64,000 nucleotides of DNA from Gemmatimonadaceae bacterium (GCA_051859245.1 JBHYGA010000004.1:224001-288000), one strand, 5' to 3'; counted from the first letter of the stretch, positions 10,827 to 62,049 are shown. Numbers and translations: made by a program. Notes: a model not told the origin generated them from the letters alone.

Positions 10827-10868
10827 ACTCTGGCTCCGTGGTAATGGGAGAAATCGGTCGCTCAACAG

Positions 10869-31213: not shown

Positions 31214-31260
31214 GCTGTTGTTGAAACCTGGGCGGCGCGCGCGCGTGATCGCACGGTGTT

Positions 31261-32424: not shown

Positions 32425-32436
32425 CGAAATTCTCAG

Positions 32437-33045: not shown

Positions 33046-33067
33046 GTTAAGTCTCGTGAAGATGCGC

Positions 33068-36888: not shown

Positions 36889-37013
36889 TGCGCCGAATCC
36901 TCGGCGGCGACGTCGCCGGGTTGGCGTTCGCCAAGCGCTTCGCAGAGGCGTACGTACCCCAGCATCAGCGCAAAAAACAGCAGGGTGCCCACGATGTAGG
37001 CGAAATCGAGCAC
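36885..37013 (-). CDS. 42-aa single-TM peptide translationally coupled to kdpA (absent from the ORF track)
   Basis: GAGGA RBS, GTG start, [42 protein letters not shown]; its TGA overlaps the kdpA ATG. Confidence 0.75.
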   Translation of the reverse strand: MLDFAYIVGTLLFFALMLGYVRLCEALGERQPGDVAAEDSAQ

Positions 37014-37104
37014 GACAGATTCCTCGGTAGAGAATGCGAAAACGGCGTTGCACGAGGATCATGTCGATCCAGTCGTGAACGCCGCGCAAAAACCACCAGA
37101 GTCC

Positions 37105-37122
37105 GCGTAAAGACAACACAAA
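37105..37122 (-). promoter_or_regulatory. Putative KdpE-binding direct repeat upstream of the kdp operon
   Basis: TTTGTG-ttgtc-TTTACG with an 11-bp period, as expected for OmpR-family boxes. Confidence 0.55.
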
Positions 37123-37133
37123 AATTTCCTGCG

Positions 37134-38747: not shown

Positions 38748-39505
38748 GTGGGCAACACGCCGTCGGGTTCGAACCGGTATCCCACACCTGCTTCCGTCTG
38801 CAGGAATCTCGGCCGCACCGGATCCGCTTCAATCTTGCGTCGCAGATGGCCCACGTACACGCGCAGATACTGCTGCGCATCGCCCTCGGCGTTGCCCCAT
38901 ACTTTGGTGAAGAGTTGTCGGTGCGTCAGCGTTTGACGTGGATGCGAGACGAGCGTACGTAGCAGCGCGAACTCCGTGGGCGTCAGATGCAAGAGCGTGT
39001 GAGCCCGTTCGACGCGACGCAACTGCAAATCGACAACAATGTCACCGAACGCAACGCGCGCTGACGCGTCATCGATTTGTGCCGGCGCCATGCGGGCGCG
39101 CCGAAGCTGGGCGCGTACACGCGCGAGTAGCTCCACGGTGGCAAATGGCTTGGTCATGTAGTCGTCGGCGCCAGCATCGAGCAGCGCAACCTTTTCGAGA
39201 TCCTGGTGCCTCGCGGAAAGGACGAGAATCGGAACCGTGCTCCATTTGCGGATCTCAACGCACACGTCCAACCCGTTGCCGTCTGGCAACCCCAGGTCGA
39301 GCACAATCAGCGAAGGCATTGCTGACGCGGCAATATCGATGCCCTCACGCGCCGTGGCCGCTTCGACGACTCGCACCGTTGCGCTCTCGTTGCCAAACAG
39401 CGCCGACGACGTCAGGGCATGACTGATGAGCCGGCGAATTTGCGGTTCGTCGTCTACGACCAGCACCGTCAGGGTACCATTGCCGGAGGCGTGTTCCACG
39501 GGCAC
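38744..39505 (-). CDS. kdpE: OmpR-family response regulator KdpE
   Basis: VVDDEPQI, LDLGLPD, GADDYMTKPF, YLRVYVGHLRRKIE; adjacent to the kdp genes. Confidence 0.93.
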   Translation of the reverse strand: MPVEHASGNGTLTVLVVDDEPQIRRLISHALTSSALFGNESATVRVVEAATAREGIDIAASAMPSLIVLDLGLPDGNGLDVCVEIRKWSTVPILVLSARHQDLEKVALLDAGADDYMTKPFATVELLARVRAQLRRARMAPAQIDDASARVAFGDIVVDLQLRRVERAHTLLHLTPTEFALLRTLVSHPRQTLTHRQLFTKVWGNAEGDAQQYLRVYVGHLRRKIEADPVRPRFLQTEAGVGYRFEPDGVLPT

Positions 39506-43493: not shown

Positions 43494-44080
43494 GCGCCAG
43501 CCGTTGCCATGGACGATGAATCGCCATCCAGTGCACGCAGGAGAAATGCGCGCGCGAACGTCCAATCGCGTTTCACCGTGGCCGGCGACGAAACCATGGC
43601 TTCCGCCGTTTCTTCAATGGAGAGTCCGCCGAAGAACCGCAGTTCGACAACGCGTGCTTGCCGCGGTGCGAGGCGTTCCAGATCGGACAAGGCGTCATCC
43701 AACGCAATCAGATCAATCGACGTTCCTTCTGAGCCCACCAGTGCTTCGTCGAGGGTGACACGCACTCCGTAGTCGCGTTTGACCCGACGTCGCTTGCGCG
43801 CGTGATCCACGAGCAGACGCCGAATGGTTTGCGACGCAATCGCAAAGAAATGTGCGCGATTCTGCCACGACATGCGGTTGACGCCGATGAGCTGCATGAA
43901 CGCTTCGTCCACCAGCTCGGTGGGCTGGAGTGTATGCCCCGCCGTTTCGCGACGCATCGCGAGTTCCGCGATGCGATGCAGTTCGTCGAGCACAAGCTGT
44001 GCCACGCGGTCCGCCGCGCCAGGGGTTCCGCGCTGCAGCTCCGCAAGCGCCGAGGTGATGTCTCCGGTAGGGCCGGTCAT
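43490..44080 (-). CDS. ECF sigma factor, TIGR02999/ECF43 type
   Basis: GHTLQPTELVDEAF, WQNRAHFFA, VELRFFGGL, TVKRDW. ATG at 44080. Confidence 0.92.
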   Translation of the reverse strand: MTGPTGDITSALAELQRGTPGAADRVAQLVLDELHRIAELAMRRETAGHTLQPTELVDEAFMQLIGVNRMSWQNRAHFFAIASQTIRRLLVDHARKRRRVKRDYGVRVTLDEALVGSEGTSIDLIALDDALSDLERLAPRQARVVELRFFGGLSIEETAEAMVSSPATVKRDWTFARAFLLRALDGDSSSMATAGA

Positions 44081-44148
44081 AGCCGCTACGCTAGCGCTCG
44101 ACACACACTGCCCGCAAGCAGCATGTGCCGAGCTCTGGCGTAACAGCA

Positions 44149-47100
44149 TTACCGCCGGATCATCGCCCCAACCCGTGGTGCGGCCGGCGGCTGGCCACCG
44201 AACTCGAACGCTCCGATATCACACGCGGCGATGCGCGTGAATCCGCGCTGATCACTCACCGGGCAGCTGGCCGCCACACCAGCGTTGATCGCGGCGCTCC
44301 CTTCAAGCAGCGCGTGCGTGAACGACGGCCCGCCGTTGTTTGCCAGTGTCGTGTTGATCCCGGGCGGCGTGTTGGGTTTGTCAGACGCGACCGTAAAGCG
44401 TGTGCACGTGGCGTCGCTCGACAGATTGCCGCCGCCTGATGTGATCAGACTTGTGCCGCCGCTTCCGCAATCTCCGGGATTGCTGCCAACGAGATTGCCA
44501 GCCAACAAGACGTTGGTGACTGTGAGCGCTCCAGCGTTGTTGGTGCCAATACCGGCTCCGTAGTCAAACGCTTTGTTCGCGACGAACGTGGAGTTCACGA
44601 TAGTGCCGGGACCAGTGGCGGCGATTCCACCACCGGTGAGCGCCTCGTTGGCCGAGAAAGTGCTGTTGCGAACCGTGAGATTTCCGGTGGTGGCGGTGAA
44701 CAGCCCCCCGCCAATCGCGCCGGTCGTATTTCGCGCGAAGGTGCTCTCTTCCACGAGCGTAGGCACACCTGCGGTCATGCCGCCACCGCTCGCTGCGATC
44801 GCCTTGTTTCCGCTCACCGTGACACGTCGCAAGGTAGCGGCGGCGCCCGGCCCAACGAGTTGCACGCCACCGCCCTGCGTGCCGGCTTCGTTGTCGAGTA
44901 CCTGCGTACCCGCCATGCTGAATACCGACTGTCCGGCCTTCCAAACGCCGCCGCCAACCGTGTTGGAGCGATTGCGCCGAATCTGGCCGCCTTCAAGTGT
45001 GACCGTCATCGTTCCGTTGAATCCGTACGCGCCACCGGAGTTCGACACGTTGTCGTCGGCGATCACGTTGCGCAGCGTGTACGTGCCGCCGGTAAGTGCG
45101 AGAATCGCACCTCCGCCCTGCGTGGCGCGGTTCTCCACAAACGTCGAGCTATCAGCGACCAGCGTCACGTTCTCCATATAGGCGCCACCGCCGCCGCCCG
45201 TCGAGGCGAGATTCTCCGCAATGCGCACGCCCTTGAGCTGAACGCTCGGGCCGTTGAGAAAGAGCGCGCCTCCACCCAGAGCCTGATTCCGCTCGATCAC
45301 AACATTGGTCAGTGCGAGCGTTTGCGCGCCGCTCTGGAAAATCGCGCCGCCAAAAGCCGCGGAACGGTTTCCACCGATTGACCCGCCGGTGACGGAAAGT
45401 TCGGCCGTATTGCCGCCCCAGATCGCTCCGCCGGAGCCAGAGGTACCGTTCGCACGATTGTTGTCCACGTTCACGTTGGTGAGCGTTGCCTTGGCCGTCT
45501 GCTGCAAATACAAACCGCCACCACCCGTCAGGTTCGCAATGTTCTCGCGAATGCTCCCGCCCTGCTGCGAATACTCGCCCGTGCCATAGACGAGCGCTCC
45601 ACCGGCACGGTTGGCGGCCGTGTTCGCAATCAGATCCGAATTCACCAACATCGCGCGCGAGCTAGCGATTTCGAGCCCCGCTGCAGACGACGCGCTGTTA
45701 GCGCGGATGGTCGTGCCCGTGATGGTCGCGAGGGCGCCACCGCGAACACTGACAGCACCGGCCGAAACGATCGCGCTGTTACCCTGAATCGTCGCGTTCA
45801 CCAGTGAAAGCGTGGCGGTGGCGCCATCTACGAACATCGCGCCACCAATACCAAGCTGCGGACTCGTTGCGCGATTGTCAGTGACCGAGGTGCTGTCGAG
45901 CACAAGTGAAGCGTTGAAAACGCGAACGCCGCCGCCTACGGAGCCACTCGCGACATTCTCGGCAATACGTCCGCCGAGCAGCGTCACCAACGTACCCTCT
46001 TCCAGCGACAATCCCGCGCCCGCTCCGGACGCGCCATTGGTACGATTGTTGGTGATCTCAACGTTCACAAATGTGCCACGCGCCGCGCGCGCCACGAGTA
46101 CCCCGCCGCCCGGGACGTTATCCGATTGATTGTCTGTCACGCGCACATCACGAAGCGTGACATTGGCTTTGTTGTCAATCATCAATCCGCCGCCACCGAG
46201 CCGTCGTCCACCGCGCATTGTTACGCCGCGCACGGACGCCGAGAACTCACCGTCAATCACGAGCACGCCGCGGCGCGCTGCTTCCGTGCCAGCCGCGTTG
46301 ATGATGAGCGCATCGACGCCCGGTCCGACGAGATCGAGCGCGGCAGTCACGGACGGCAGCGCAGCACCGAGCGTGATTGTGGCTGGCGCTGCACCGCCAA
46401 CAATCACGATGGAGTCGCGATCTGGCGCCGTATTCGACGCAGCGAGCGCCTCTCGCAGCGTGCAATGTTGCAAGGTGCAGCTCCCATCATCGGTATCGTC
46501 GAGGGTTGCAACGCGCCAGACGTTGCGCACCGTAAGGGCACGTTCGCCTTGTTTGGCCGGATCACGTACGCTCGTCGCGCGAACCGTGCAGGTTCCTGGC
46601 GTACTTGGCGCGAGAAACTGTACCGTGGCGCCCGTACCGGTGATCGTGCCACAACTTGTGCTCCACGTGACCGAGAGATTGCTGGTCCCCGCGACCGCGG
46701 CAGTCAACGCGGTCTGTTCACCGCGGAACAGCGCGCTGCTCACCGCCGTCACGGCCACCGTGACCGGTGTGACGGTCACCGTCGCGGCGGCAGTGCGTGT
46801 TGGATCCAGCACACTGGTGGCCGTCACGGTATAACTGCCACCAGCCACCGGAGCAGCCCATCGCACACTGCTGCCGGTGCCAACAATTGTGCCCGCACTC
46901 GCCGTCCACGTCACCGCGTCATTCGTGGCGTTTGTCACCGCCGCCGCGAGCGACACGGTGTCACCCGCGCCTACGGTGCTCGTGGCCGGTGTCACCGCAA
47001 TGCTCACTGGCGTGACCGTCACCGTGGCGAACGCTGTGCGCGCCGCGTCGACCACACTCGTTGCCGTAATCGTGTAGCTGCCACCCGCACCGGGTGCGGT

Positions 47101-47415
47101 CCATGAGGCGCTTGTGCCGTTCGGCGTGATGGTGCCCGCACTCGAGCTCCACGTCACGCCAGTATTGGTCGCGTTCGTAACCGACGCCGTGAACTGCGCC
47201 GTCGCGCCCGCGTTCACGGTCGCGGTGGCAGGCGTGACGGTGACGCTGACCGGAGGCGGCGGTGGCTCCGTCGTGCCCGAGTCGCCGCCACAGGCGAAGA
47301 CACTCGACAGTGTGAGAAACGACAGCAGAACGACTGCACAGGACCGGCGAGACGGGCGCGTTGCGCGCCGTAGTCGCTGACCGGTCCTCAAGTCTGATGG
47401 TGAGAGGCGGGGCAT
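44149..47415 (-). CDS. Large surface lipoprotein/adhesin: three Ig-like repeats, CSLREA motif, beta-helix repeats, choice-of-anchor Q-like C-terminus
   Basis: VFAC lipobox, repeated VTPAT...VTW...GTI, CTLREA, GGG/GGA and N.A repeats, LANNGG...DQRG...CDIGAFE. Confidence 0.88.
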   Translation of the reverse strand: MPRLSPSDLRTGQRLRRATRPSRRSCAVVLLSFLTLSSVFACGGDSGTTEPPPPPVSVTVTPATATVNAGATAQFTASVTNATNTGVTWSSSAGTITPNGTSASWTAPGAGGSYTITATSVVDAARTAFATVTVTPVSIAVTPATSTVGAGDTVSLAAAVTNATNDAVTWTASAGTIVGTGSSVRWAAPVAGGSYTVTATSVLDPTRTAAATVTVTPVTVAVTAVSSALFRGEQTALTAAVAGTSNLSVTWSTSCGTITGTGATVQFLAPSTPGTCTVRATSVRDPAKQGERALTVRNVWRVATLDDTDDGSCTLQHCTLREALAASNTAPDRDSIVIVGGAAPATITLGAALPSVTAALDLVGPGVDALIINAAGTEAARRGVLVIDGEFSASVRGVTMRGGRRLGGGGLMIDNKANVTLRDVRVTDNQSDNVPGGGVLVARAARGTFVNVEITNNRTNGASGAGAGLSLEEGTLVTLLGGRIAENVASGSVGGGVRVFNASLVLDSTSVTDNRATSPQLGIGGAMFVDGATATLSLVNATIQGNSAIVSAGAVSVRGGALATITGTTIRANSASSAAGLEIASSRAMLVNSDLIANTAANRAGGALVYGTGEYSQQGGSIRENIANLTGGGGLYLQQTAKATLTNVNVDNNRANGTSGSGGAIWGGNTAELSVTGGSIGGNRSAAFGGAIFQSGAQTLALTNVVIERNQALGGGALFLNGPSVQLKGVRIAENLASTGGGGGAYMENVTLVADSSTFVENRATQGGGAILALTGGTYTLRNVIADDNVSNSGGAYGFNGTMTVTLEGGQIRRNRSNTVGGGVWKAGQSVFSMAGTQVLDNEAGTQGGGVQLVGPGAAATLRRVTVSGNKAIAASGGGMTAGVPTLVEESTFARNTTGAIGGGLFTATTGNLTVRNSTFSANEALTGGGIAATGPGTIVNSTFVANKAFDYGAGIGTNNAGALTVTNVLLAGNLVGSNPGDCGSGGTSLITSGGGNLSSDATCTRFTVASDKPNTPPGINTTLANNGGPSFTHALLEGSAAINAGVAASCPVSDQRGFTRIAACDIGAFEFGGQPPAAPRVGAMIRR

Positions 47416-47501
47416 GGCGAGGAGCTCCATCGCGGAGTGGAAGGACACCCACTGAACGCGGGTGGTGGTCTCACTTACGCGCCGTCCCCGACCAAACTGG
47501 C

Positions 47502-48455
47502 TCACTGCACCGGTGCCAGACCCTCATTGTTGAAGAATCGCACCAGCGTACGGGCCGCCTCTCTCGGACGTTCCCAATGCGGCGAGTGACCCGTTGAGTC
47601 GAACTGCACCAATGGTGCGCGGTACAGCCGCACAAGCTCTGTCTGCTCGGAACGCGGCATGAACGCATCCTTCGCGCCCCACATGACCATGGTACGCACC
47701 GTGCTCCGCACGGGCGGACCTGAATCGGTCATCATGCCCCGCATCAACCCCTTCCACACGTGCAGTGGCAACTTGAGACTCGCCTGGACCGTGGAATCAA
47801 GAAATGCCTGAGGAACCGGTACATGCACGGAACTCTCTTGAAAGCCGCGAGCGAACGCGTCGGACACTGGTGCATTCTCGTCCGTGAACTCTGCCACTGC
47901 GCCCGCGAGTTCGCCCAAACCCGCAACGTATGCACCGCCTCGCAGAGCACCAATCAGCCCGAGCGATTGCACGCGATTAGCCCGCTGCGCGGCAAGATGC
48001 TGTGCGACCGCAGAACCCATCGAATGTCCAACTACGTGCACTCGCGTCAGTTGCAGGGAATCGAACACCGCCGCCACATCGCTGGCCAGCGTGCGCATGC
48101 TGTAGTCACCCACTGGTTTGCTCGACTCACCGTGTCCGCGCATATCGATGGTGATCAATCGAAAGTCGCCCGGGAGGAACTCGACGACACGGTTGAATGA
48201 TGACCACGAATCCGACAATCCGTGCAACATGACCACGGGCGTGCCATTCGGGTTGCCGCGTTCAACCACATGCAGCCCCACATCGGATGACACCTGTATG
48301 TGGCGTGCCCGAATGCCGGTTGCCACTCCGGTATCGGCGGTCGTGTTCGCGAGCGCGATGTTGTCGCCGTTGGGACGGCTTACGGCACCGGCGGTGATGG
48401 CTGCGACGGCGCCAATCGCGGCGACTGAAAGAAGAAGCGTTTTACGTGCCAGCAT
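47502..48455 (-). CDS. Secreted alpha/beta hydrolase
   Basis: MLHGLSD, DMRGHGES, GHSMG, WGAKD, GHSPHWE. ATG at 48455. Confidence 0.9.
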   Translation of the reverse strand: MLARKTLLLSVAAIGAVAAITAGAVSRPNGDNIALANTTADTGVATGIRARHIQVSSDVGLHVVERGNPNGTPVVMLHGLSDSWSSFNRVVEFLPGDFRLITIDMRGHGESSKPVGDYSMRTLASDVAAVFDSLQLTRVHVVGHSMGSAVAQHLAAQRANRVQSLGLIGALRGGAYVAGLGELAGAVAEFTDENAPVSDAFARGFQESSVHVPVPQAFLDSTVQASLKLPLHVWKGLMRGMMTDSGPPVRSTVRTMVMWGAKDAFMPRSEQTELVRLYRAPLVQFDSTGHSPHWERPREAARTLVRFFNNEGLAPVQ

Positions 48456-48578
48456 TGGGAGCGTGGGCAGAGGAGTGCAGGCAGCGATGGTGCTGCTTGA
48501 CTCTTCATGCGCGGACTGTCTGCTCAGCACGACATCCCGCGAGAGACACCGCGCCTCGCTCCCGCGCAGGGTACGTCG

Positions 48579-50837
48579 CTAGCGCGCCACTGGCTGAAAA
48601 CGCGCCTGACCCGTTTGCCAGAGCAGGAATGACATGGTCTTCGCCGCCCACTCCGGCGACAGATAGAATAACTCGGCGTGTCCGCCCGGCGTTCGCGCCC
48701 AGACAATCGGACAATCACCGGTGTTCGCCGCTTGCAGCCGCGCCACAAACTTTCCCACCAGCATTTCGTTACCAAAGTTGTAGTCGTCCGACGCACTGTG
48801 CAGCAGCACCGCTGGCAACGTGATCCGCTCCGGTATCTGATAGTACGGTGACGACTTGAGCAGGCTGCGAATACCGGCTTCCGTTTCAAGATCACCGATT
48901 TCCGCAATGTTTCGCGCGGCGGTAGGATCGATCATGGAGCCACGAATCTCATCGGGCTGACCTACTTCGTAGAGCACCGCTCCGAGCAACTCCGGGCGCT
49001 GCGCGATCACCAGGCCGGGTATGTTGGCGCCGAAGGAAGTGCCTGTGATCACCACGCGTTTTGCCGACGTGTAGCGTTTGGCAATCAGCGCTTCAATCGC
49101 GCCGATCATGTCATCAATCGTGCGTTGTTTGTTCTCCCGCGTCGCGGCCTTGTGCCACGCATCCCCGCGTTCACCCCCGCCGCGTACGTGGGCGTAGGCA
49201 TAGACACCACCCTGCGACAGCCACGCCGTCACCTTCGGGTCAAATCGCGGGTCGGTGATTGTACCAAATCCGCCGTATGCTTCAATCAAGAGCGGCGCTG
49301 AACCGTCAAGCGTTGCCGTTGAACTGTCGTACACGATAGAAACAGGAACGAGCTCGCCGTCACGCGAAGGCGCTTCCAGCTGACTCGACACAACCTGTGC
49401 GCTCGATGTGGCCGAATAGCCGTCATCAATGCCGAGCGCGTTCACCTCGCCGTTTGACACGCGCAGCCAACGTGGTGTGGTGGCCCACGATTGCACGTTC
49501 AGCACGGCACCGGCCATCGTGGCGTTGCGTCGGAGCAGTGTAACGGTGCCCGATTCCGGCAGCGGCACCACGCGTGGGGACGTTTTTTCTGCCAACGCTC
49601 CCGGTGAAACCGCGGCGCCCACGTTTGTCGCCACGTGCAGCAGCGCAATCGCGCCTGCGTCGCGCTCCATGAAGTACAATCCGTCCGACTGCACGGAGAA
49701 TCCAGTGATCACACCGCGACGTTCGGCAATCACAGTTTCCCAGACAGTCGTGTCGGCTCCAGCGTCTCGTAACACGCGCCGCACAATCGAGCCGCGGTCT
49801 GCGTTTCGCCGCGAAATGGCGTACACCGTATCGCCGACCAACTGCGGAACACGAATCAAATCATCGAATGACGCAATGCGCGTCCACGTTAGCCCATTCG
49901 GCGCTGTATTGCGTGTCGCGTAATACTCCGTCCCGTTCTCGCGCGACCGAAAAATCGAGCCTACCATCCACTCCGTATTACTTCCGGTCAACACGCGTGT
50001 CGGCAGGTCAATCGGATCGAACGCGACCGATGAACTCACCCCGTATCCGAAAATCGGCACGTCGGCCGATTGCGGTGTGCCAATGCGATGCAGAAACTGA
50101 CGACCGCGCGCCAGTCGCTCGGCAGGCGGACCGTTCGCACTGCCCGGCCACTGCCTCGGATAAATGAAGCCGCTGTTATCGGGCAGCCACGTCACTTCAT
50201 AACGCGTGCCGCTGGTCGTCGTCAGCAGGTCGGGAATGTTGTCAGCCATCAGTGCGCCCGAGGCCGCATCGACCACGCTCAACGCTGCATTGGCATCACC
50301 ACGTTCCGTTGTGCCGAGCACGACAAAGCGCCCGTCCCACGACGGCGTAGACGCCCGCAGCGACGCACCGTTCCTCGCACTCGCCAGCGCCGAATCGGTA
50401 AGCAACGGGCGTTCAGTCGTTGTGCCGTTGTCGAGCGCAAACAGCGAAGGGTTCTCGCCGAACCATCGTTCGACAATCAGACGCGATGGCGTTTCGTGAA
50501 CATCACCGAGTGTTGGCAAGTCACTCATGCCCTGTTTGACGCGCGCTTCGAGGGAGTCTCTCCCCACGAGCCGCGCCATCACGGAATCAGTGTAGTGCTT
50601 CTGCGCCGTCAGCCATGCGCGCACGTCGGCATTGGTGGTGTCTTCCATCCAGCGCAGCGGATCGACTACCGGCACGCCGTGCATCGTATCCACGACAGGC
50701 ACAAATGGCACCGTCGCGGGCGGCGTGATCCCCGCGGGAACGACCGACATCTCAGCATCTGCAGGCGCACTCTCGTTGCACGCATTCATCAGCACTGCGC
50801 AGAGGCCGATCACACTCACATGAGTTGCGAGACGCAT
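48579..50837 (-). CDS. Prolyl oligopeptidase (S9A) family protein, lipoprotein-type signal
   Basis: DPLRWMED, SRDGELVP, AYGGFG, VRGGGERGDAWH, GTSFG nucleophile, GGH. Confidence 0.9.
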   Translation of the reverse strand: MRLATHVSVIGLCAVLMNACNESAPADAEMSVVPAGITPPATVPFVPVVDTMHGVPVVDPLRWMEDTTNADVRAWLTAQKHYTDSVMARLVGRDSLEARVKQGMSDLPTLGDVHETPSRLIVERWFGENPSLFALDNGTTTERPLLTDSALASARNGASLRASTPSWDGRFVVLGTTERGDANAALSVVDAASGALMADNIPDLLTTTSGTRYEVTWLPDNSGFIYPRQWPGSANGPPAERLARGRQFLHRIGTPQSADVPIFGYGVSSSVAFDPIDLPTRVLTGSNTEWMVGSIFRSRENGTEYYATRNTAPNGLTWTRIASFDDLIRVPQLVGDTVYAISRRNADRGSIVRRVLRDAGADTTVWETVIAERRGVITGFSVQSDGLYFMERDAGAIALLHVATNVGAAVSPGALAEKTSPRVVPLPESGTVTLLRRNATMAGAVLNVQSWATTPRWLRVSNGEVNALGIDDGYSATSSAQVVSSQLEAPSRDGELVPVSIVYDSSTATLDGSAPLLIEAYGGFGTITDPRFDPKVTAWLSQGGVYAYAHVRGGGERGDAWHKAATRENKQRTIDDMIGAIEALIAKRYTSAKRVVITGTSFGANIPGLVIAQRPELLGAVLYEVGQPDEIRGSMIDPTAARNIAEIGDLETEAGIRSLLKSSPYYQIPERITLPAVLLHSASDDYNFGNEMLVGKFVARLQAANTGDCPIVWARTPGGHAELFYLSPEWAAKTMSFLLWQTGQARFQPVAR

Positions 50838-51077
50838 TGATCACACTCTCATCAGGGTTAACACTGCAGCGGCACTGGAGCGAGCGGGAAACGGCGAAGG
50901 TCAAGCGTTACGTTTCGTACGCACAAGGAAGGTGACGTGCATCACACGACAATGCGCTTTCGCCGTTGCGCCCGCCATAGGGCAAGTCGCAGTTTGGGAT
51001 GGCGCGGCCAAGATGCCGCCGCTTACGAATGCGCGTGAACGCCGCGCGTTCGGCTCCCCCAGACAGGACGTACTTCC

Positions 51078-51482
51078 ATGGGACTGTTCAGCAAGATTCT
51101 CTCGAAGCTTGGCATCGGCGACGACAAAACGACCGCGCCCGCCGCCGCAGCGCCCGCCGCCGCAGCGCCTGCCGCTGCCCCCGTGCCAGGACGCACGACA
51201 CCAGATCCGTCCGTCGCGATTCGGGTCGTCAATGTTGAAGAGAAGCTCGAAGCAATGGCCAAGGCCAATCCACAGGAGCTCAACTGGCGCACATCCATCG
51301 TGGACCTGCTCAAGCTGCTCGATCTCGATAGCAGCTTTGCGGCACGCAAGGAGTTGGCGGTTGAACTCGATTGCCCGGATGAACTCATGAAAGATTCCGC
51401 GAGCATGAATATCTGGTTGCACAAGCAGGTGCTGTCGAAAATCGCGGCCAATGGTGGCTACATCCCGCACGATCTGTACTGA
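51078..51482 (+). CDS. DUF3597 family protein
   Basis: LNWRTSIVDLLKLLDLDSS, DSASMNIWLHKQV, NGG. Confidence 0.92.
   Translation: MGLFSKILSKLGIGDDKTTAPAAAAPAAAAPAAAPVPGRTTPDPSVAIRVVNVEEKLEAMAKANPQELNWRTSIVDLLKLLDLDSSFAARKELAVELDCPDELMKDSASMNIWLHKQVLSKIAANGGYIPHDLY
51134..51178 (+). repeat. 15-bp tandem repeat x3 encoding an APAAA linker
   Basis: GCGCCCGCCGCCGCA twice plus one degenerate copy inside the DUF3597 gene; edges approximate. Confidence 0.7.
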
Positions 51483-51533: not shown

Positions 51534-52991
51534 TTACGCAAACGCCTTCTTGATGCGGTTGATCGTCATCGGTTGCTCAAAGTAGTTGCAGTGCCACACA
51601 CCGCTTTTGTCACCAAAGCGGTATGTGCGCCCATCAGCAATCGCACCACGCACAGGTCCAAGATCGGTCATGCTCGCGGTGTCCACGACCAGATCATTCG
51701 CTTCGGGAAAAATGCGATCTGCTGCCGTGTCGGCCGCAGTTGATTTGCGAAAGTATTTCCAGAACGCGAGACCGGGATCATCTGTCTCGTAGTTGGTGAG
51801 CACCGCATTGTACTCGGCACGCACCACGCCCGCGTGATCACGCAGTCGCGACAGCTCAGCGTTATTCGACACCATGGACTGTCCCTGCAATCCCGGAATC
51901 AGCGCAACAGCTGCATCGATTGATCCGCGTTTGCCAAGATTGTCAATCGGCGGAATCGAAAACTTCTCTTTAGCGCGCCCACCCAGGAACTCGAGCATCG
52001 CAAATCCGGCTGTTGCGAACGGATGCGCTTTGGCCGCTACACCCAGGGTCTTCGACAACAAGCCACCAATGTTCGTGAGCAGACTCACCAGCGGCTGAAT
52101 CTTGTCTGGCGCCGCGAGACTGGTGCCGGCCAGCGGTGTGCCCGCCAGAAACACGCGCACCGTTGCACCCGACTCGGCGAGCGCGTGACCCAGCACTTCC
52201 AGCCACCAGCTCACCACCACTCCGCCGCGACTGTGCGCAATCACATCGAGTTGTCCGCTCGTGGCGCCCATTGTGCGCGCCAGGTCGAGCGCATTCACCC
52301 ACGGGCTGACCGACAACGTGTGGTGTTCAAAACACACGACCTGGTCATAGTCGCCGTTAATGGCCGCCGACAACCACTGTTTGCCGGTTGACGCGGTACC
52401 CAAACCGGAAATAATGCTGGTGGCGTGCGAGAACGTGCCGTGGACAATCAGCAGCGTTTTGCCTGTGAACGGACCGCGCACGGCGGGTCCCGCTGCAAAC
52501 GTTCCATCCGCGTGTTGCACCACCCTGCGCAATCCCATCTTGCTATCGGGGTTCAAACGCTCGTCGACCTGCGCCAACCGTTCCATGTATTGGTTGGGCT
52601 CAAGCCGAGGCATGCGCACACGCGCGAGTTCTTCATTCCACGGACGTGGTGTGATCGTGATACGATTGCGACGACTTGCCCGTGCACGTCGCGTTACGGC
52701 GCTCGGTGAACGCACAGCTGCCACGTCATCGGCCGAACGCCAGAGCAACACACCGTCGGCATTTTCAACCAACACATACTCGGCGTGGTACGCATCGCGC
52801 TGAGCGGACAACGAGGCACGACGTCGCCGCACCAGCTGCGGGGATGGCTCGCCGTCAAACGGATCATCGGCGGCGCGCAGGTTCGATGTGGCCACATCGT
52901 GCTGGTCCGCTTCGGCAAGCACGGTGTGCAGCGTATCGAGCACACCCGCGTGCCGCACCGAGGCCGGACGATCATCGTGCGTGGTGGCCAT
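51534..52991 (-). CDS. Lipase/esterase-type alpha/beta hydrolase with Arg-rich N-terminal extension (paralogue 2)
   Basis: IVHGTFS, IAHSRGG, GTPLAGT, ANDLVVDT, WHCNYF: Ser-Asp-His triad candidates present. Confidence 0.85.
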   Translation of the reverse strand: MATTHDDRPASVRHAGVLDTLHTVLAEADQHDVATSNLRAADDPFDGEPSPQLVRRRRASLSAQRDAYHAEYVLVENADGVLLWRSADDVAAVRSPSAVTRRARASRRNRITITPRPWNEELARVRMPRLEPNQYMERLAQVDERLNPDSKMGLRRVVQHADGTFAAGPAVRGPFTGKTLLIVHGTFSHATSIISGLGTASTGKQWLSAAINGDYDQVVCFEHHTLSVSPWVNALDLARTMGATSGQLDVIAHSRGGVVVSWWLEVLGHALAESGATVRVFLAGTPLAGTSLAAPDKIQPLVSLLTNIGGLLSKTLGVAAKAHPFATAGFAMLEFLGGRAKEKFSIPPIDNLGKRGSIDAAVALIPGLQGQSMVSNNAELSRLRDHAGVVRAEYNAVLTNYETDDPGLAFWKYFRKSTAADTAADRIFPEANDLVVDTASMTDLGPVRGAIADGRTYRFGDKSGVWHCNYFEQPMTINRIKKAFA

Positions 52992-52993
52992 GG

Positions 52994-55567
52994 TCAGCGC
53001 TCACCCGCAATAATCGGCAGCGGGGTGACAGGCGGCGACGACCGGCGCGCCACGCGAATGTCGAGCAGCGAATCGAATGCGTTGCGGTCGGCCAGATTGT
53101 CGAGCCCTTCCTGTTGCGCCTGCGCAAAGGGATAACCAAAACACAGTCCGGTTGACTCGAGCAGGCACAGCGCGTCGGCGCGAACATACCCCTGCAACTC
53201 ATCGTAGCCCTGCGGCCCCACGCGCCATCCGTACGGATCCACCAGTTCAATGCGACCAGAACGAAACGCCGACTCACCAAGTGATCGTACGCGACCTTCA
53301 GGTGGACGGGCCACTGTCATGAACTCCTCCTGGTACGCGTCAGCGCGCCAGTAGCCGACAAAACAGTGTCCGGTGATCAGTACGAGACACGCGTGGATCT
53401 CTACATATTCAAGACACGCGGCAAGCAGCAGCGACAAGTCAATACAAGTGCCGCTCGACGTGTGCAACAACTCACTTGGCGTGCGCAACCGCTGTCCACC
53501 GCGCGAATACGCCGGTGGTGGATTGATGTACAGCAGCTTGCGATCGTTCACCAGCGCGGTCCAGATCGCCTGCACCTGCAAATCAGTCCGATCGGTCGCG
53601 TGCGCACCGCCGTCGGGATCGTCGACCTGCTGATAGCCGTCAAAACCGGCGTTCGTATCATCAGTCAGCGCCACCAGATATTTGCGTGCTTCGCCAATAA
53701 TGCGTGCGATCGCCGGATCGCGCGGCAGCACGAATGACGGCAACCACGGATTGTTCTTGGAATCGTCGTACCATTCGTCTACCGGTAGCAGCGCTACGCG
53801 ATGCGTGTCTTCATGAGCCACTCGGCCTTCCCACGTCACGCGGGTGTACACCGTGGTGTGCGTGCGCTCATGCAATGAACGCAGCAGCGGTGCGGTCAGC
53901 GGAAGCGTGACCGCATCGGCGAGCGCCACGTGCGGTTCACTCAGGCTCAGTGTTCTGCGGAACTGCTGTACCACGCCACCGGCCTCAAGCTCCACTTCCA
54001 CGCGCACATCATCGAGATCGTGATCAACTAGTTTGCTCAGCGTAAACGTCTTGAGCGCACTGCGCCGGTTGTGCAGCAGTGAATAGTTGATCTCGGACGG
54101 CACATCGACATCAACCGCGAGTACCTCTGACACGCGCTGCTCGCGCGAACGTTGGAGCTCGGCCTTCAATGCGGCCTGATCCGCATCATCGTCAGTGCTG
54201 AATGTGACCGCAGGATCGTCCGCGCGTGCAGCGATGGCCTTGTTGATTTCTTCAACCGGCTCGCACGTGCACATCCACAGCACAATGCCGGTGCCGTGCA
54301 GGTCGTGCCCTTGCTCATCCAACTGTACCCACGCGCGTCCAAACGCTTCCGCGAGCGCGGTGAGCGTGGTCGCATCCTGGCACTCGCGATAGAACACGGT
54401 GAAGAAGTACTCAGCGACTTCGTCGGGAATCGTATCGAGAAAGCCAATGCTGACCTGCGCACCACGACGCAACATTTCCGGTGCCGTGTGTGCGCCGGAG
54501 TAGTGCAGGTTCAGCGTCACCAGCGCGGGTGGCGTTTTGCCAGTGGGAATCAATGCCTCGGCCAGGTCGACCGCGCTCACTACTTGTTCACGTGCGGTCT
54601 GCTGGAATACGCCGTCGGCGGTCATCCCTGGTTCAGCGCGTCGCACTTCTCGCGCCATGAGCATGCCACCGGGCTGTACGCGCGCCGGATCGGCATAGAG
54701 ATCGGGAATCAACGCGGCCGCCTGAATCGGATCCACACCGCTCACATGCACGAAGTGCGAATCGTTGGCCGGCAACGCGTTCATGTACGCGGCCAGCGCC
54801 GAGTGGGTCGAACGCGGTGGTGCGGTGTGGTGCGTTCGGTCAGAAGGCGGAAACACCATGTTGCTGGTGTCATTTGCGCCTACGGCGTGGCCGAGCCGCA
54901 GAATTTCGGAATCAAAGCTGTACACATCGCCAATGCGCCCGGGAGCAGACGTGACAATGGTCAATGTGCCCGCGCCCACTTCATCAGGGTGCGGTGGACG
55001 TCCGTCTGCGAGACACCGGGTAATCAGAACGCCCTGCGTGCGCCCGAGACAGCGTGTCGCCGCGCTCAATACGTATTCCCACGGAAACGCAAACGCGGCT
55101 TCGACCACATCGCGGGCGTGGTCCGCATCATGAAACGCATGACCTGCAATGCTGGAGTCGGCTAGCACCACTTGCAGTCGCTCCGAGGTGGCGAGTTGCC
55201 GCATAACGTCGGCGTCGAAACCGAGCAGCGACAGGGCTTCAACCGCGTACTCGCTGATCACCGCGCGCAGATCGGGATCGTGCGCCCAACGACTGCGCAT
55301 GCGCAGTGTGTAGCTCCAGTCCGCGCTCAAGCGAAGGATCTGGTGCGAGGCTTCGGGTGAACAATCGAATGACGCATGCGCGCCACGCAGTTGAACGAGC
55401 GGCGGCGGCTCGTGAAACTGAGCGGTTGTCGCACGTGCGTCTGTTCGCGACGTTCTCGAACCCGCCGCGCGCGACGTTGATTTGCGCGCGGCTTTTTTCG
55501 ACGCGGATTTTTTTGCGACTTGTTTTGAAGGCGCGCGCTTGCTCGGGGCTTTTTTGCTCGGGCTCAT
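52994..55567 (-). CDS. Fusion of a degenerate CHAT (caspase-like) domain and a transglutaminase-like Cys-His domain
   Basis: FPWEYVL, VHVSGVD, LVTLNLHYS, IGFLDTIPDEVAEYFFTVFY; then YINPPP..GQRLRTP, GTCIDLSLL, GHCFVGYW, ESTG. Confidence 0.8.
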   Translation of the reverse strand: MSPSKKAPSKRAPSKQVAKKSASKKAARKSTSRAAGSRTSRTDARATTAQFHEPPPLVQLRGAHASFDCSPEASHQILRLSADWSYTLRMRSRWAHDPDLRAVISEYAVEALSLLGFDADVMRQLATSERLQVVLADSSIAGHAFHDADHARDVVEAAFAFPWEYVLSAATRCLGRTQGVLITRCLADGRPPHPDEVGAGTLTIVTSAPGRIGDVYSFDSEILRLGHAVGANDTSNMVFPPSDRTHHTAPPRSTHSALAAYMNALPANDSHFVHVSGVDPIQAAALIPDLYADPARVQPGGMLMAREVRRAEPGMTADGVFQQTAREQVVSAVDLAEALIPTGKTPPALVTLNLHYSGAHTAPEMLRRGAQVSIGFLDTIPDEVAEYFFTVFYRECQDATTLTALAEAFGRAWVQLDEQGHDLHGTGIVLWMCTCEPVEEINKAIAARADDPAVTFSTDDDADQAALKAELQRSREQRVSEVLAVDVDVPSEINYSLLHNRRSALKTFTLSKLVDHDLDDVRVEVELEAGGVVQQFRRTLSLSEPHVALADAVTLPLTAPLLRSLHERTHTTVYTRVTWEGRVAHEDTHRVALLPVDEWYDDSKNNPWLPSFVLPRDPAIARIIGEARKYLVALTDDTNAGFDGYQQVDDPDGGAHATDRTDLQVQAIWTALVNDRKLLYINPPPAYSRGGQRLRTPSELLHTSSGTCIDLSLLLAACLEYVEIHACLVLITGHCFVGYWRADAYQEEFMTVARPPEGRVRSLGESAFRSGRIELVDPYGWRVGPQGYDELQGYVRADALCLLESTGLCFGYPFAQAQQEGLDNLADRNAFDSLLDIRVARRSSPPVTPLPIIAGER

Positions 55568-55613
55568 AGTGCGTCGGTGCGAGGACGTGTCACAGGAGTT
55601 GGCGGGCGATTCA

Positions 55614-57419
55614 TCAGGCGGGAATGTTCAGCAACGCGCCGCCACTGCGGTCTGCCGATTGTCGGCGGCGGCTGAGAATGGCTCGACGCCCCCGTCTTAC
55701 CGACGCAAGCGCTGACAGCGCTGGTGCGACCTCCGACTCGCCGTCAATCAGCCAGTGGCGCAGCTGCGCAATGATGTCAGGGTCGCGAAAGCACGTGGTG
55801 TGCATCGTGCGTCCGTTCTGTGGCAGCGCGAGCGTACGCTGCACATCAATCGGCAGGCCTGCCACCGTCGCCATCGAGCTCGTGTTCACCACTAAATCGT
55901 TCGCCTGACGCATCTGTGCGTCCATGGCCAGATCCCACAGCTTGAGCTTGAGCGCCGACGGCATCGCTTCGCTCGCGTCTTCTGCGCCGGCGCCATTGGG
56001 TTCATAGTCGTTGCTGACGGCGTGATATGTTTGCACGCGCGTTGCTGGCGGTGGTGACGTGTTTAGATCCTTCACGACCTGCTGCTGCGGATCCATCGCG
56101 GCGAGTCCAGGCACCGCTTCGCTGTCGAGCAGTGCGGTGGCAAGAAACCGAACAAGCGCGGCCACTCCGCGCGCAACCGTTTCAACCCACACGGCCGCAA
56201 CCGCCGCTGGTGGCAATGCCGTCGCAACGCCACGACACGCCGCCACCGCGAGATTTGTCATCACCGTGACCAGTGTATTCCACTGCGCGCGTTGTGCGAG
56301 CAGTGTGCCTGCGAGTGTAGACGCCACAAAAACCACACGTGCGAATGCGTCGGACCAACGTGTGCCCGGCACGAGCTGCTCGAGCAGCGTTCGTGTCACG
56401 AGGCCACCGCGACTGAACGCGATCACATCGATCACCGGACGGGTTGTGCCCGGCGGAAATGCGCGATCAAGCGCGTCCAGAATGGCTTGCGCGTTCTGCG
56501 CTGGTGTTTCGCTGAGTGTGCGGTGATTCCAGCCGAGAATGTGGTCGTACTGTTCGTGCATGGCGTGCAGCAGGGCCACGCCGGGCACGGTGAACCCGAG
56601 TCCGCCAAAGGAACCCACGGTTGAACTGAAGGTGCCGTGCACCAGCAGTAGCACACGCGGCGCGGCGCCGGGGAGCGTGGTTACTGGTGGCAGCGTAAAG
56701 CGCTCACCGAGAGTGGTCCATTCGGAGGGCACGGTAGACGCCACGCGCACAAGTCCGGCAGACACGCCTTTTTCGAGATGCTTGATCAACAGCCCGGTCA
56801 CCTTGCGGCGAATGAACTTGAAGAGCCATCCCCCAACGGCGCGCAGCACACTCGAGACGCGCCGGCGACGTGTGGTGTGCGTACTGCGCGTGGCAGGTGT
56901 CTGTGCCGCCGTGATGTTGAAGTGCGCGATGCGAGTAGCGGTGCGCGCGGCTGTTGACGCGCGTGGGCCATTCTCGCGTTGGCGTGTCGCGCGCTTGCGA
57001 GCCGCGCGACGTTGGTCCGTTGGTGCGTTACTCACGCGCGTGCCATCGGCGAACACCCAGTCGAGTTCACCGAACTCGTCGACGGTGAGGACAACTGCGT
57101 CTTCATCATCGGCGAGTTCAACGTCGACGGTGGTGGCTTGCATCGCGCCTGGCAGCACCGACGCACGTCGCGCACTCATGCCCGGACGACGCGGCCGAGG
57201 TGCGACCGTAAAGTTGGTCACGAGCTCAAAGCCCTGTCCTTCAAGTTCACGCAACAGGCGCGTGAGATCTTCTTCGGGCGGCGCGGCGCGGATCGTGCCG
57301 CGCGCCCGACGTTTGCGCGCGTCACCGCGCGGCGTGTTGCGCAACTGCGTGCCTGGCAACACGGCCACAGTCGCAGCGTGGTGCACGGTGACTCCGTTGC
57401 CCATCGAATGGCTCGGCAT
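55614..57419 (-). CDS. Lipase/esterase-type alpha/beta hydrolase with Arg-rich N-terminal extension (paralogue 1)
   Basis: LVHGTFSST, IAFSRGG, STLAGT, ANDLVVNT, MHTTCF. Confidence 0.85.
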   Translation of the reverse strand: MPSHSMGNGVTVHHAATVAVLPGTQLRNTPRGDARKRRARGTIRAAPPEEDLTRLLRELEGQGFELVTNFTVAPRPRRPGMSARRASVLPGAMQATTVDVELADDEDAVVLTVDEFGELDWVFADGTRVSNAPTDQRRAARKRATRQRENGPRASTAARTATRIAHFNITAAQTPATRSTHTTRRRRVSSVLRAVGGWLFKFIRRKVTGLLIKHLEKGVSAGLVRVASTVPSEWTTLGERFTLPPVTTLPGAAPRVLLLVHGTFSSTVGSFGGLGFTVPGVALLHAMHEQYDHILGWNHRTLSETPAQNAQAILDALDRAFPPGTTRPVIDVIAFSRGGLVTRTLLEQLVPGTRWSDAFARVVFVASTLAGTLLAQRAQWNTLVTVMTNLAVAACRGVATALPPAAVAAVWVETVARGVAALVRFLATALLDSEAVPGLAAMDPQQQVVKDLNTSPPPATRVQTYHAVSNDYEPNGAGAEDASEAMPSALKLKLWDLAMDAQMRQANDLVVNTSSMATVAGLPIDVQRTLALPQNGRTMHTTCFRDPDIIAQLRHWLIDGESEVAPALSALASVRRGRRAILSRRRQSADRSGGALLNIPA

Positions 57420-60382: not shown

Positions 60383-61693
60383 CTACATCACGAACAAGTC
60401 CGATCGATGCGCCGTCGCAATACGCACCGAATCCGCCTCGTCAACACCGGCCTCCGCCGCATACCCGCTCCACGCCGCGACCGCCGCCGACACCTCGGCC
60501 AACACGCGCATCGCTTTCGTCTTTTTTATTCCGGCCGCAGCAGCGAACGAGACGAGGTCCTCAGCTGTGAATCCATCCCGCTTCCCGCCCAGCGTCATCT
60601 GATGCACGCTCGTCCACGCACCCGACGGATTCCACGAGTACGACACATCAAACGCCGGCGACAATCGCCACACACCGGTACGATCCATGAGAAACGCAAT
60701 GTTCTTGACATGATCGTCCTGGTTACGCGCGAGAATATTGAAGTACGTGCGACGCACCTGTTGCTCGAAATCGGGCATTGGTAGTAGCAGTTTGCGCATT
60801 GTCTGCAACACCTGCTCGTACGCATACGCTCCAGCCAGACCAAAGTCATAGTGCGCAAGCGCACCAAACGACTGCATGTGCAGCGTGCCACCGTTCGGCG
60901 TGCGATCAAATCGGCGCGTCATGAAGTGCGAACGTCCGCCTTCTTCATGCAATCGACACGGCTCCATGTGAATGCCGGCCGCGAGCGCCATGCGATGATA
61001 CGCGTACTCAATCCGACCAAAACCCTGCGGGTCCGCAAGTTCTTTGTCACGGTTGCCAGACACGCCGTCGAACTTGAGCAACCAGTGACTGAATCCTTCC
61101 CCCGCAGGCGCCTGGCCCGAGCGAAACTCACCGGTCGTTTCATTCCACGCCAACACGGCCTTCGCTCGCGCGCCACCCGCCGACGTGCCAACTCTCAGTA
61201 TGTCTTCAATCGCGTGTTGATCGTTGTCGCCGGAAAGTTTTCCGTGCAACGCGATGCGATCATCAAGCGCTCGGTCGGCCATCGCAACAAGCTCCGCGAT
61301 ATCAACGCGACGTGAAGCGGTTGGCGATTCTCGAACACGCGGTTTGAATTCCAGCGCGCCCATGCCGCGCGAACCCGTGTAGCACAATCGCTCCACCGGC
61401 GTGAAGCTCGCCGGATCGCGCCCGCGTTGCGCCAACCACGCGTTGATAAGTGTATTGCCGAACGTATCTGGCAAACTGTCGGCCAGCAGTCCTGGCAAAC
61501 CCTTGAACGTCGCGCGCGAAAGCGACGGAAACGAATACGGCACGTCAGTGAGCGGCATCATGAGCGGCGCCACTTGAATCGACGAACGCGCAAACTCGGG
61601 GGTGTATTGAAACACGGCGACTTCGCGATCTGGCAGCCACGTGACCGCGCCAATGTCGCGCCCCCAGAGGATCACACGCGCCGAGTCCGTCAC
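60383..61693 (-). CDS. hipA: HipA family toxin (Ser/Thr kinase) with N-terminal HipA-coupled domain
   Basis: DSLPDTFG, RGMGALEF, TSAGGARAK, LLKFD, RRFDR, NQDDHVKN, LSPAFD. Confidence 0.95.
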   Translation of the reverse strand: MTDSARVILWGRDIGAVTWLPDREVAVFQYTPEFARSSIQVAPLMMPLTDVPYSFPSLSRATFKGLPGLLADSLPDTFGNTLINAWLAQRGRDPASFTPVERLCYTGSRGMGALEFKPRVRESPTASRRVDIAELVAMADRALDDRIALHGKLSGDNDQHAIEDILRVGTSAGGARAKAVLAWNETTGEFRSGQAPAGEGFSHWLLKFDGVSGNRDKELADPQGFGRIEYAYHRMALAAGIHMEPCRLHEEGGRSHFMTRRFDRTPNGGTLHMQSFGALAHYDFGLAGAYAYEQVLQTMRKLLLPMPDFEQQVRRTYFNILARNQDDHVKNIAFLMDRTGVWRLSPAFDVSYSWNPSGAWTSVHQMTLGGKRDGFTAEDLVSFAAAAGIKKTKAMRVLAEVSAAVAAWSGYAAEAGVDEADSVRIATAHRSDLFVM

Positions 61694-62049
61694 TCGGTGC
61701 CCTCGTCACCCCACGTCCACGCCGTGCGCGCCGACGAACGCTGGCCGCTGGCGCGCTGACGTTCAACGCCGTCATACCGCACGCGCTCCACAGGACGGAC
61801 AGACGGGTCCGGCAGCAGTGCGGCGAGGTGATCGGAGAGACCGAGCGCTTGCACGACACGCACGAACGAATCAAGTGAGATCGGCCGGCCATCGGCCAGT
61901 CGCGTGAGCGTGCTGCGCGAGACGCCGGCCCGCTCAGCCAGCTGCTCCTGACTGAGATTTTGGCTCAGCCGGATCTCGTTGAGCTGCCGGCCGAGCATAT
62001 CAATGATCGTTTGCGCCGACGCTAAACTAAAGTCCGGCTTGTGAGTCAT
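61690..62049 (-). CDS. hipB: XRE-family HTH antitoxin (HipB-like)
   Basis: LSQEQLAERAGVSRSTL; 4-nt overlap with hipA; C-terminal WTW tail. Confidence 0.88.
   Translation of the reverse strand: MTHKPDFSLASAQTIIDMLGRQLNEIRLSQNLSQEQLAERAGVSRSTLTRLADGRPISLDSFVRVVQALGLSDHLAALLPDPSVRPVERVRYDGVERQRASGQRSSARTAWTWGDEGTE

Follow-up and report, generated by a model that had tools for sequence, protein, structure and literature searches.

Three co-directional genes in the genome of a Gemmatimonadaceae bacterium raise the question of whether they form one undescribed system and, if so, what such a system would do. They lie in a stretch of 64,000 nucleotides (GCA_051859245.1, JBHYGA010000004.1:224001-288000), which is called the window throughout, and encode two predicted hydrolases (P0001 and P0003) on either side of a large multi-domain protein (P0002). 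A preliminary description, made from the sequence alone, had proposed a candidate three-gene conflict system here. We found that a widespread, unnamed two-gene module, made up of a P0002-type gene and one hydrolase gene, underlies the triad of the window, a lineage-specific version to which the upstream hydrolase was added locally. As for function, a conflict module (anti-phage defence or regulated cell death) is in our judgement the most likely reading of the two-gene core, with about an even chance of being right. The three genes, taken from the open reading frame (ORF) listing, are as follows.

55614-57419, minus strand: P0001, upstream hydrolase gene, 601 aa
52994-55567, minus strand: P0002, middle gene, 857 aa
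51534-52991, minus strand: P0003, downstream hydrolase gene, 485 aa

The spacers were 46 bp between P0001 and P0002 (55568-55613) and 2 bp between P0002 and P0003 (52992-52993), and the ORF coordinates thus reproduced exactly the tight co-directional arrangement that had been described. A scan for promoters and terminators gave background values only, with 2 promoter-like sites (1.6 expected) and 10 terminator-like sites (7.1 expected).

The conserved gene pair and its variants

A scan of one genome per species gave 294 pattern matches, 252 of them relatives, from which the best 80 loci were retained. Adjacency was testable in the 73 loci, from five phyla, with at least 1200 nt downstream of the middle gene. 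In 67 of these 73 loci a hydrolase gene of the Pfam family DUF7379 directly followed the P0002-like gene; 66 of these hydrolases were of P0003 type and one (L061) was of P0001 type. L001 held only an upstream P0001-type gene, with no downstream hydrolase, and the five loci with no adjacent hydrolase are considered below. An exact 4-nt start/stop overlap with the middle gene was present in 23 of the 70 hydrolase ORFs measured, and 16 more lay within 1-28 nt; ORFs in the loci were called by a longest-ORF heuristic, because of which many hydrolase starts are over-extended and give large negative distances. Over 64 loci, the pairwise identities of the middle gene and of the hydrolase were correlated (Spearman 0.70, a value reached in 0 of 500 permutations), and the nearest neighbour was the same for module and hydrolase in 46 of the 64. 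These comparisons support that P0002-type and hydrolase genes co-diverge and are functionally linked.

The pair also occurred in fused and split forms. Protein P0010 (1351 aa), with DUF7379 at residues 242-438 and a P0002-like part after it, may represent either a genuine fusion or a read-through in gene calling; a fused hydrolase/middle ORF was found in L031 as well. In ten loci of the Bradyrhizobium clade (L015, L016, L018-L023, L025 and L026) two adjacent genes, one CHAT-like (about 400-490 aa) and one transglutaminase-like (about 370-420 aa), took the place of the single middle gene, a natural split that was kept across species. No other conserved neighbour was detected, the next largest cluster beyond the pair being present in 12 of the 80 loci.

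Outside the window, the upstream P0001-type hydrolase was found only in L001, L091 and L092. L001 is a Gemmatimonadaceae metagenome-assembled genome whose middle gene is 71% identical to P0002. Orthologues of P0001 with about 70% identity occupied the same position in L001 and L092. The metagenome contig L092 carried the full triad in the same order (70%, 70% and 76% identity), and L091 carried the first two genes and the start of the third. In L001, the middle gene is directly followed by what lies after P0003 in the window, and this genome has lost the downstream hydrolase copy. The linkage on which the three-gene proposal was built is therefore conserved as a pair (67 of 73 loci), but the triad itself is not.

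Two further observations concern the ends of the triad. A 189-aa ORF at 50901-51470 on the minus strand of the window, with a Gly/Arg/Cys-rich stretch and no Pfam match, was 69% identical to an ORF after the L001 middle gene; it may be conserved non-coding DNA or an opposite-strand gene rather than a real protein. Just downstream of the L092 triad, at 6764-7441 on the plus strand, a weak integrase-core (rve) match was recorded (E 6e-4, below the cut-off).

The size of the family was estimated by an exhaustive HMMER search with residues 480-857 of P0002, in which 2776 clusters of 50% identity reached E <=1e-3 and 358 of these E <=1e-30; the best 150 clusters all had the P0002 architecture or its C-terminal half alone. 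A word-indexed search, with 41 proteins, had thus recovered only a small part of the family. Its occurrence was patchy. Of 150 other genomes in the window's family, 8 held relatives (9 of 109 high-quality genomes when the window's own was counted), and same-genus copies were only 35-41% identical. A close P0003-type gene was found in 8 of 151 sampled Bradyrhizobium species, the query's own included, and one of these genes had stop codons. Prometheus heads served as the root for a tree of the C-terminal module, which was built by a quick search with several long branches flagged; in it the phylum labels need 14 changes (minimum 4), and Bradyrhizobium was nested among Acidobacteriota and Gemmatimonadota with support of 97-100. 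This distribution is best described as that of an accessory, horizontally moving cassette which has crossed phyla.

The decayed Bradyrhizobium gene (G266:C54:620465-621489) contained two TGA and one TAA codon inside the matches. Nine other Bradyrhizobium genomes (G157, G212, G234, G255, G267, G273, G286, G292 and G301) held open frames of about 1110-1170 aa in which a DUF7379-like region was 33-36% identical; these probably belong to a DUF7379-CHAT fusion type and not to the pair.

The middle protein and its kinship to ProA

The preliminary description had assigned to the middle protein a pseudo-CHAT domain and a Cys-His transglutaminase-like domain; the CHAT fold, its pseudo status and the presence of the Cys-His core were borne out. 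The AlphaFold model of P0002 (mean predicted local distance difference test (pLDDT) 80.6, predicted template modelling score (pTM) 0.82) consisted of four parts, which are listed here with the predicted catalytic triad.

55415-55567, minus strand: disordered N-terminal tail rich in Lys, Arg, Ser and Ala, residues 1-51, pLDDT <50
54260-55414, minus strand: CHAT-fold, caspase-like domain, residues ~52-436 (VIA, Foldseek, hhalign)
53786-54130, minus strand: beta-sandwich, residues 480-594 (VIA)
53012-53764, minus strand: transglutaminase-like core, residues ~602-852 (triad conservation, ProA profile, VIA, atlas)
53444-53446, 53366-53368 and 53156-53158, minus strand: predicted triad C708, H734 and E804, respectively

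A basic N-terminal tail of at least 8 aa was present in 24 of 28 family members, with a median net charge of +8. For the second part, the core resembled the activated SAVED-CHAT filament 8tl0 in the VIA structure comparison (Z 18.5, root-mean-square deviation (rmsd) 2.7, 181 aligned), and the whole domain gave Z 13-15 to Csx29/TPR-CHAT, separase, gingipains and the anti-sigma factor DdvA. Foldseek also recovered the CHAT fold (E 2.5e-5), and the neighbours of this domain in the protein-language atlas were CHAT clusters (score 0.94). The Pfam CHAT model (PF12770) matched residues 360-408 only, with 15.3 bits and E 0.014, below its 24-bit cut-off. The catalytic dyad was checked by aligning the P0002 family profile with hhalign to nine genuine CHAT domains that carry LHFAGHG and LNACQ (probability 93%, E 3.3e-7). 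V278/D279 of P0002 occupied the His-Gly position and H355 the position of the catalytic Cys (LNAC), which across the family is H, Y, W, Q or N. By this profile alignment, the CHAT domain of P0002 lacks both catalytic residues and is predicted to be catalytically dead.

The beta-sandwich matched the barrel domain of protein 4.2 (7uzs/8cs9; VIA Z ~10, rmsd 2.7, 103 aligned) and factor XIII (1f13; Z 9.3). In the following core, C708 starts helix 708-721, H734 starts the hairpin strand 734-740 and E804 follows strand 800-803 of the model; the GTC...GH core was nearly invariant across the family, with C708 nearly invariant and H734 invariant. Database matches of this region were weak: Pfam DUF553 scored 12.7 bits against a cut-off of 20.5, and residues 602-836 matched the putative protease 3kd4_B with VIA Z 8.4 at rank 50 of a list dominated by CHAT domain matches. 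When the profile of P0002 was searched against the sequences of the Protein Data Bank (PDB), no match was significant (best E 0.14). The atlas neighbours of the core were clusters with DUF553 (25% of members) or Transglut_core (12%).

A link to a known system was found in this C-terminal half. Residues 494-748 of P0002 matched positions 1-244 of the NCBIfam model antiphage_ProA (NF058533, 1903 positions) with E 3.8e-53. The score of 180.4 bits is far under the 1500-bit equivalog cut-off, and P0002 is therefore not a ProA. A search among longer proteins gave 71 Prometheus-like proteins of 1.6-2.2 kaa with DUF4011, AAA_11/AAA_12, the MTES_1575 nuclease and DUF3320. By BLASTP, residues 586-852 of P0002 aligned with residues 107-327 of one of them, P0044 (34% identity, E 2e-30), in a region that precedes DUF4011 (375-545) and falls outside the match (370-1943) to PDC-S37, the PADLOC candidate that corresponds to Prometheus. 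The triad was retained in these 71 proteins at the equivalents of C708 (71/71), H734 (70/71) and E804 (69/71; 64 E and 5 D), and the equivalents of Q692, R695 and D710 were each kept in 70 of the 71. The profile match and the shared residues indicate that the C-terminal half of P0002, comprising the beta-sandwich and the Cys-His-Glu module (~494-852), is homologous to the N-terminal head of anti-phage ProA.

Prometheus is described in passages of PMC13700489 as a single-protein defence system, with the ProA of P. aeruginosa stated there to have been validated experimentally by van den Berg et al. (Cell Host Microbe 2024). An earlier text (PMC3710099, 2013) notes, in its part on giant ProA-type proteins, that they carry a 'transglutaminase-like peptidase', and proposes protein cleavage as an extra line of defence. 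P0002 differs from ProA in that DUF4011, the superfamily 1 (SF1) helicase, the Vsr-type nuclease and DUF3320, all found in P0044, P0047 and P0063, gave no Pfam match in P0002, where the module instead lies at the C-terminus, preceded by a dead CHAT domain, and has a separate hydrolase as partner. The head common to ProA and P0002 suggests one input module wired to different outputs.

The caspase-like part invites comparison with the CHAT proteases of defence systems. P0002 has its fold in common with SAVED-CHAT of the cyclic oligonucleotide-based antiphage signalling system (CBASS) and type III CRISPR, and with the Csx29/TPR-CHAT Craspase of type III-E CRISPR (Z ~14), together with the broad scheme in which a caspase-like protein works with an effector that damages the cell. 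Unlike these proteases, it has no catalytic dyad and no SAVED or TPR domain. Readings as a type III-E CRISPR, gasdermin or CBASS system were rejected: the CHAT dyad is dead, and no such neighbour, including a cyclase, CRISPR or Csx30-type partner, was present among the scanned genes of the flank survey, which covered the window (53 gene picks) and 14 diverse loci of the 80.

The hydrolases

P0001 and P0003 were both recognised by Pfam DUF7379 (PF24096), scoring 187.5 bits (3.1e-55) and 96 bits (3.5e-27), respectively, above the 33-bit cut-off, and are the only two DUF7379 genes in the whole 4.70-Mb genome. They are 26% identical to each other. All motifs named in the preliminary description for these genes, which it regarded as paralogous alpha/beta hydrolases, were located, with starts in P0001 and P0003 at 261 and 184 for HGTFS, 335 and 253 for xSRGG, 507 and 432 for NDLVV, and 540 and 467 for the C-terminal His.

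56061-56651, minus strand: P0001 DUF7379 domain, residues 257-453, with a long N-terminal extension before it and a basic C-terminal tail after it
minus strand: P0001 predicted triad S336, D508 and H540, with oxyanion HG 261-262 (alignment)
52467-52991, minus strand: P0003 DUF7362-like N-terminal extension, residues 1-175 (alignment, hhalign)
51534-52466, minus strand: P0003 DUF7379 lipase-like catalytic domain, residues 176-485 and stop (Pfam, structure matches)
52230-52232, 51693-51695 and 51591-51593, minus strand: P0003 triad S254, D433 and H467, respectively (alignment)

In an alignment of 34 sequences including P0001, the oxyanion residues H184/G185 and the catalytic S254, D433 and H467 (P0003 numbering) were invariant, and both proteins are predicted to be intact Ser-Asp-His alpha/beta hydrolases of DUF7379. 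The P0003 model (mean pLDDT 76.9, pTM 0.79) resembled lipase-type alpha/beta hydrolases from residue ~148-176 to the C-terminus, and its best VIA match was the Legionella phospholipase PlaB (6zth; Z 16.5, rmsd 3.5, 226 aligned), followed by a Streptomyces lipase (Z 16.4), BlEst2 (16.2) and palmitoyl-protein thioesterase 2 (PPT2; 15.6). Foldseek placed family I lipases at the top rank, and the best PDB sequence match was 7x2p (E 2.1e-5), with the AHSRGGLV elbow common to both. Residues 1-147 of P0003 gave no structural match with VIA. The N-terminal extension carries family-wide motifs in the alignment (Arg-rich patches, LVExDGVLxW and LDxRLNP...GLR), and hhalign aligned it from residue 69 on with DUF7362-DUF7379 proteins (probability 100%); each hydrolase therefore consists of a DUF7362-like extension followed by a DUF7379 catalytic domain.

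Among relatives of P0001, many proteins had the order DUF7362-DUF7379-DUF7363 followed by CHAT, Peptidase_C14, Peptidase_C25, thermolysin M4, subtilase S8 or TCAD7, which means that this hydrolase is repeatedly found coupled to caspase-like or other proteases. The window's proteins have the hydrolase family, the N-terminal extension (hhalign 100%) and the caspase-like coupling in common with these fusions. In the DUF7379-CHAT fusions, however, the protease is in the same polypeptide and its His-Gly and Cys motifs are intact, whereas the caspase-like domain of P0002 is dead, belongs to a protein of its own and has gained a transglutaminase-like enzyme. A literature search found no publication on DUF7379, DUF7362, DUF7363 or PF24096; literature matches for TCAD7 were rejected as plant CAD7 genes.

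CapV is a patatin-type lipase/phospholipase effector of CBASS. With effectors of this kind, including Tle4 of the type VI secretion system (T6SS; Z 13.4) and PlaB, P0003 has a lipase/phospholipase-type alpha/beta hydrolase fold in common. The hydrolases here differ in belonging to DUF7379, in their A/x-x-S-R-G-G elbow and in the lack of a nucleotide-sensing domain, and their activity is a predicted one. The likeness to Tle4, PlaB and a further Legionella effector, RavL (Z 14.3), and the presence of two divergent lipase paralogues at one locus could indicate that the hydrolases are exported toxins directed against other bacteria or a host, like the T6SS Tle lipases, with P0002 as adaptor, chaperone or immunity factor. 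We consider this highly unlikely. The N-termini of P0001 and P0003 contained no hydrophobic 19-residue window (maximum Kyte-Doolittle means 0.69 and 0.56, respectively; no dedicated signal-peptide predictor was used), which fits the earlier statement that both lack signal peptides; neither the window nor the 14 loci held a secretion-system, PAAR, VgrG or Rhs-type neighbour; an 857-aa multi-domain enzyme is unlike small immunity proteins; and the start/stop overlaps and fusions argue for a single cytoplasmic complex.

Proposed function and genomic context

If the pair acts as a conflict module, its regulator would be the cytoplasmic P0002, with its basic tail, dead CHAT scaffold, beta-sandwich and predicted intact Cys-His-Glu enzyme, and its effector a cytoplasmic lipase/phospholipase-like serine hydrolase with a DUF7362-like extension. 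The hydrolase would be kept inactive by its own N-terminal extension, by binding of the regulator, or by both. The dead-CHAT/beta-sandwich part may sense or dock the trigger, upon which the transglutaminase-like thiol enzyme would cleave or otherwise modify the hydrolase or a common target; cleavage of the DUF7362-like extension would be the most likely activating chemistry. The freed esterase/lipase could then damage membranes or deacylate proteins, and in the window the divergent upstream paralogue P0001 would be a second effector. Physical binding, processing, the lipid substrate, the trigger and phage defence are all steps that we infer. The best indirect arguments for a conflict role are the homology to the ProA head and the recurrent DUF7379-protease fusions. 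Also in its favour are the linkage of the pair, its accessory and mobile distribution, and the closest structural matches of the hydrolase (PlaB, lipases, thioesterases and Tle4) and of the CHAT fold (the defence proteases SAVED-CHAT and Csx29). A more specific proposal is that the beta-sandwich and Cys-His-Glu module is a portable immunity trigger enzyme, common to the head of the Prometheus helicase-nuclease and to P0002, where a dead caspase scaffold would connect it to the lipases, and which would activate these by cleaving or transamidating a DUF7362 pro-domain, the whole being a new abortive-infection system; this we put forward tentatively, as a possibility that falls well short of probable.

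Several results weigh against a conflict role. Homology of one domain to ProA does not transfer the function of ProA. The defence-island association expected in the preliminary description was absent from the 64-kb window and the 14 sampled loci, where the neighbours were housekeeping or regulatory genes. The surroundings of the triad were ordinary chromosome (a kdp operon, Ser/Thr kinases, extracytoplasmic function (ECF) sigma factors, peptidases and a coenzyme A (CoA)-transferase), and the flanks of the 14 loci held metabolic, transport or regulatory genes that differed between loci. PADLOC matches among neighbours were generic only (a kinase to PD-T4-6, a methyltransferase to mad2, an ATP-binding cassette (ABC) protein to mad3 and a MoaA-type radical S-adenosylmethionine (SAM) protein to pVip), and the only defence-like neighbour in the window was a toxin-antitoxin pair of hipBA type, which lies upstream of the triad at a distance of about 3 kb. 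PADLOC-DB v2.0.0 returned 0 families for P0001, P0002 and P0003 at E <=1; with the partial ProA match as the only NCBIfam result, this is in line with the earlier remark that no named system was recognised. No full-length copy was found on 72,556 plasmids, on which the 79 matching records were the C-terminal module alone in Prometheus-like genes, nor among 50,697 phage records, which gave one partial match, and PHROGs gave no matches. The window and L001 have flanking synteny in common, and inheritance in this small clade is therefore vertical. Finally, no adjacent hydrolase was present in 5 of the 73 testable loci (L027, L034, L046, L054 and L071), where the neighbours had housekeeping Pfam matches or none and no alternative partner was established.

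The housekeeping flanks in the window and the 14 loci, the chromosomal location with local synteny between the window and L001, and the lack of full-length plasmid or phage copies would also suit an accessory, non-immune enzyme pair which acts on one cellular substrate, such as membrane lipids, lipoproteins, acylated proteins or a storage polymer, with the dead CHAT domain as a scaffold. The fold neighbours of P0003 agree with this, since they include the thioesterases PPT1/PPT2, the polyhydroxybutyrate (PHB) depolymerase PhaZ and PGAP1. Such a pair is hard to reconcile with the patchy occurrence (8 of 150 family genomes; 8 of 151 Bradyrhizobium species, one copy decayed), the movement of the cassette across phyla and the lack of any metabolic gene as conserved neighbour. 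Moreover, the C-terminal module otherwise heads anti-phage-type helicase-nucleases, and the hydrolase family is repeatedly fused to caspase-like proteases. On balance we regard a non-immune pair as unlikely, although it comes closest to the conflict module among the alternatives.

The five loci in which the middle gene stands without a hydrolase also bear on the division of roles within a conflict module. The transglutaminase-like enzyme might itself be the executioner, which would cleave, deamidate or cross-link proteins of the host or the phage, and the hydrolases its regulators or activators, for example by removing an acyl or ester block. The Cys-His-Glu triad is conserved as strictly as the hydrolase triad, and the ProA-like head sits beside other effector domains and was proposed to cleave proteins in the part of PMC3710099 on these giant proteins. 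Against such a reversal, DUF7379 in relatives occupies the usual place of the effector, fused to proteases and TCAD7; a cytoplasmic lipase/phospholipase-like fold represents a typical killing activity; and duplication of the hydrolase in the window's lineage fits diversification of an effector. We therefore hold the reversed assignment to be quite improbable and retain the conflict module with the hydrolase as effector.

Other features were recorded around these loci. In L071, a co-directional 511-aa ORF without Pfam or PADLOC match follows the middle gene at 10525-12060 on the plus strand and could be an alternative partner. The hipBA-type pair of the window (60383-62049, minus strand) consists of a HipA-like kinase toxin gene (HipA_C 1.5e-48, Couple_hipA) that has a 4-nt overlap with an Xre-type helix-turn-helix (HTH) gene upstream of it (61690-62049). 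The kdp locus at 30035-39505 on the minus strand is complete, with KdpA, a KdpB-like P-type ATPase, KdpC, a KdpD sensor domain, a histidine kinase and a response regulator, and contains an OmpL-like porin gene. The block syntenic between the window (40917-47505, minus strand) and L001 (11216-17699) encodes an 1118-aa beta-helix/immunoglobulin-like (Ig) protein, an ECF sigma factor and a Ser/Thr kinase with TPR; between this block and the triad, the window holds an S9 prolyl oligopeptidase and an alpha/beta hydrolase (47502-50837), which are absent from L001.

A literature search found no publication in which 'conflict systems' occur together with CHAT, transglutaminase and lipase. Should the module be immune, it would bring in a family with no fewer than several hundred clusters at 50% identity, spanning soil and aquatic phyla poorly covered by defence catalogues, and would provide an example of a caspase fold kept as a scaffold only, with a different thiol enzyme taking over; the function of the conserved ProA head would also become testable in a simpler two-protein setting. 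Should the portable-trigger proposal be true, a role would be assigned to the unexplained head of ProA, and this genome would carry a two-effector version of the system. If the module is not immune, a partner and a context are still defined for Pfam DUF7379, DUF7362 and DUF7363.

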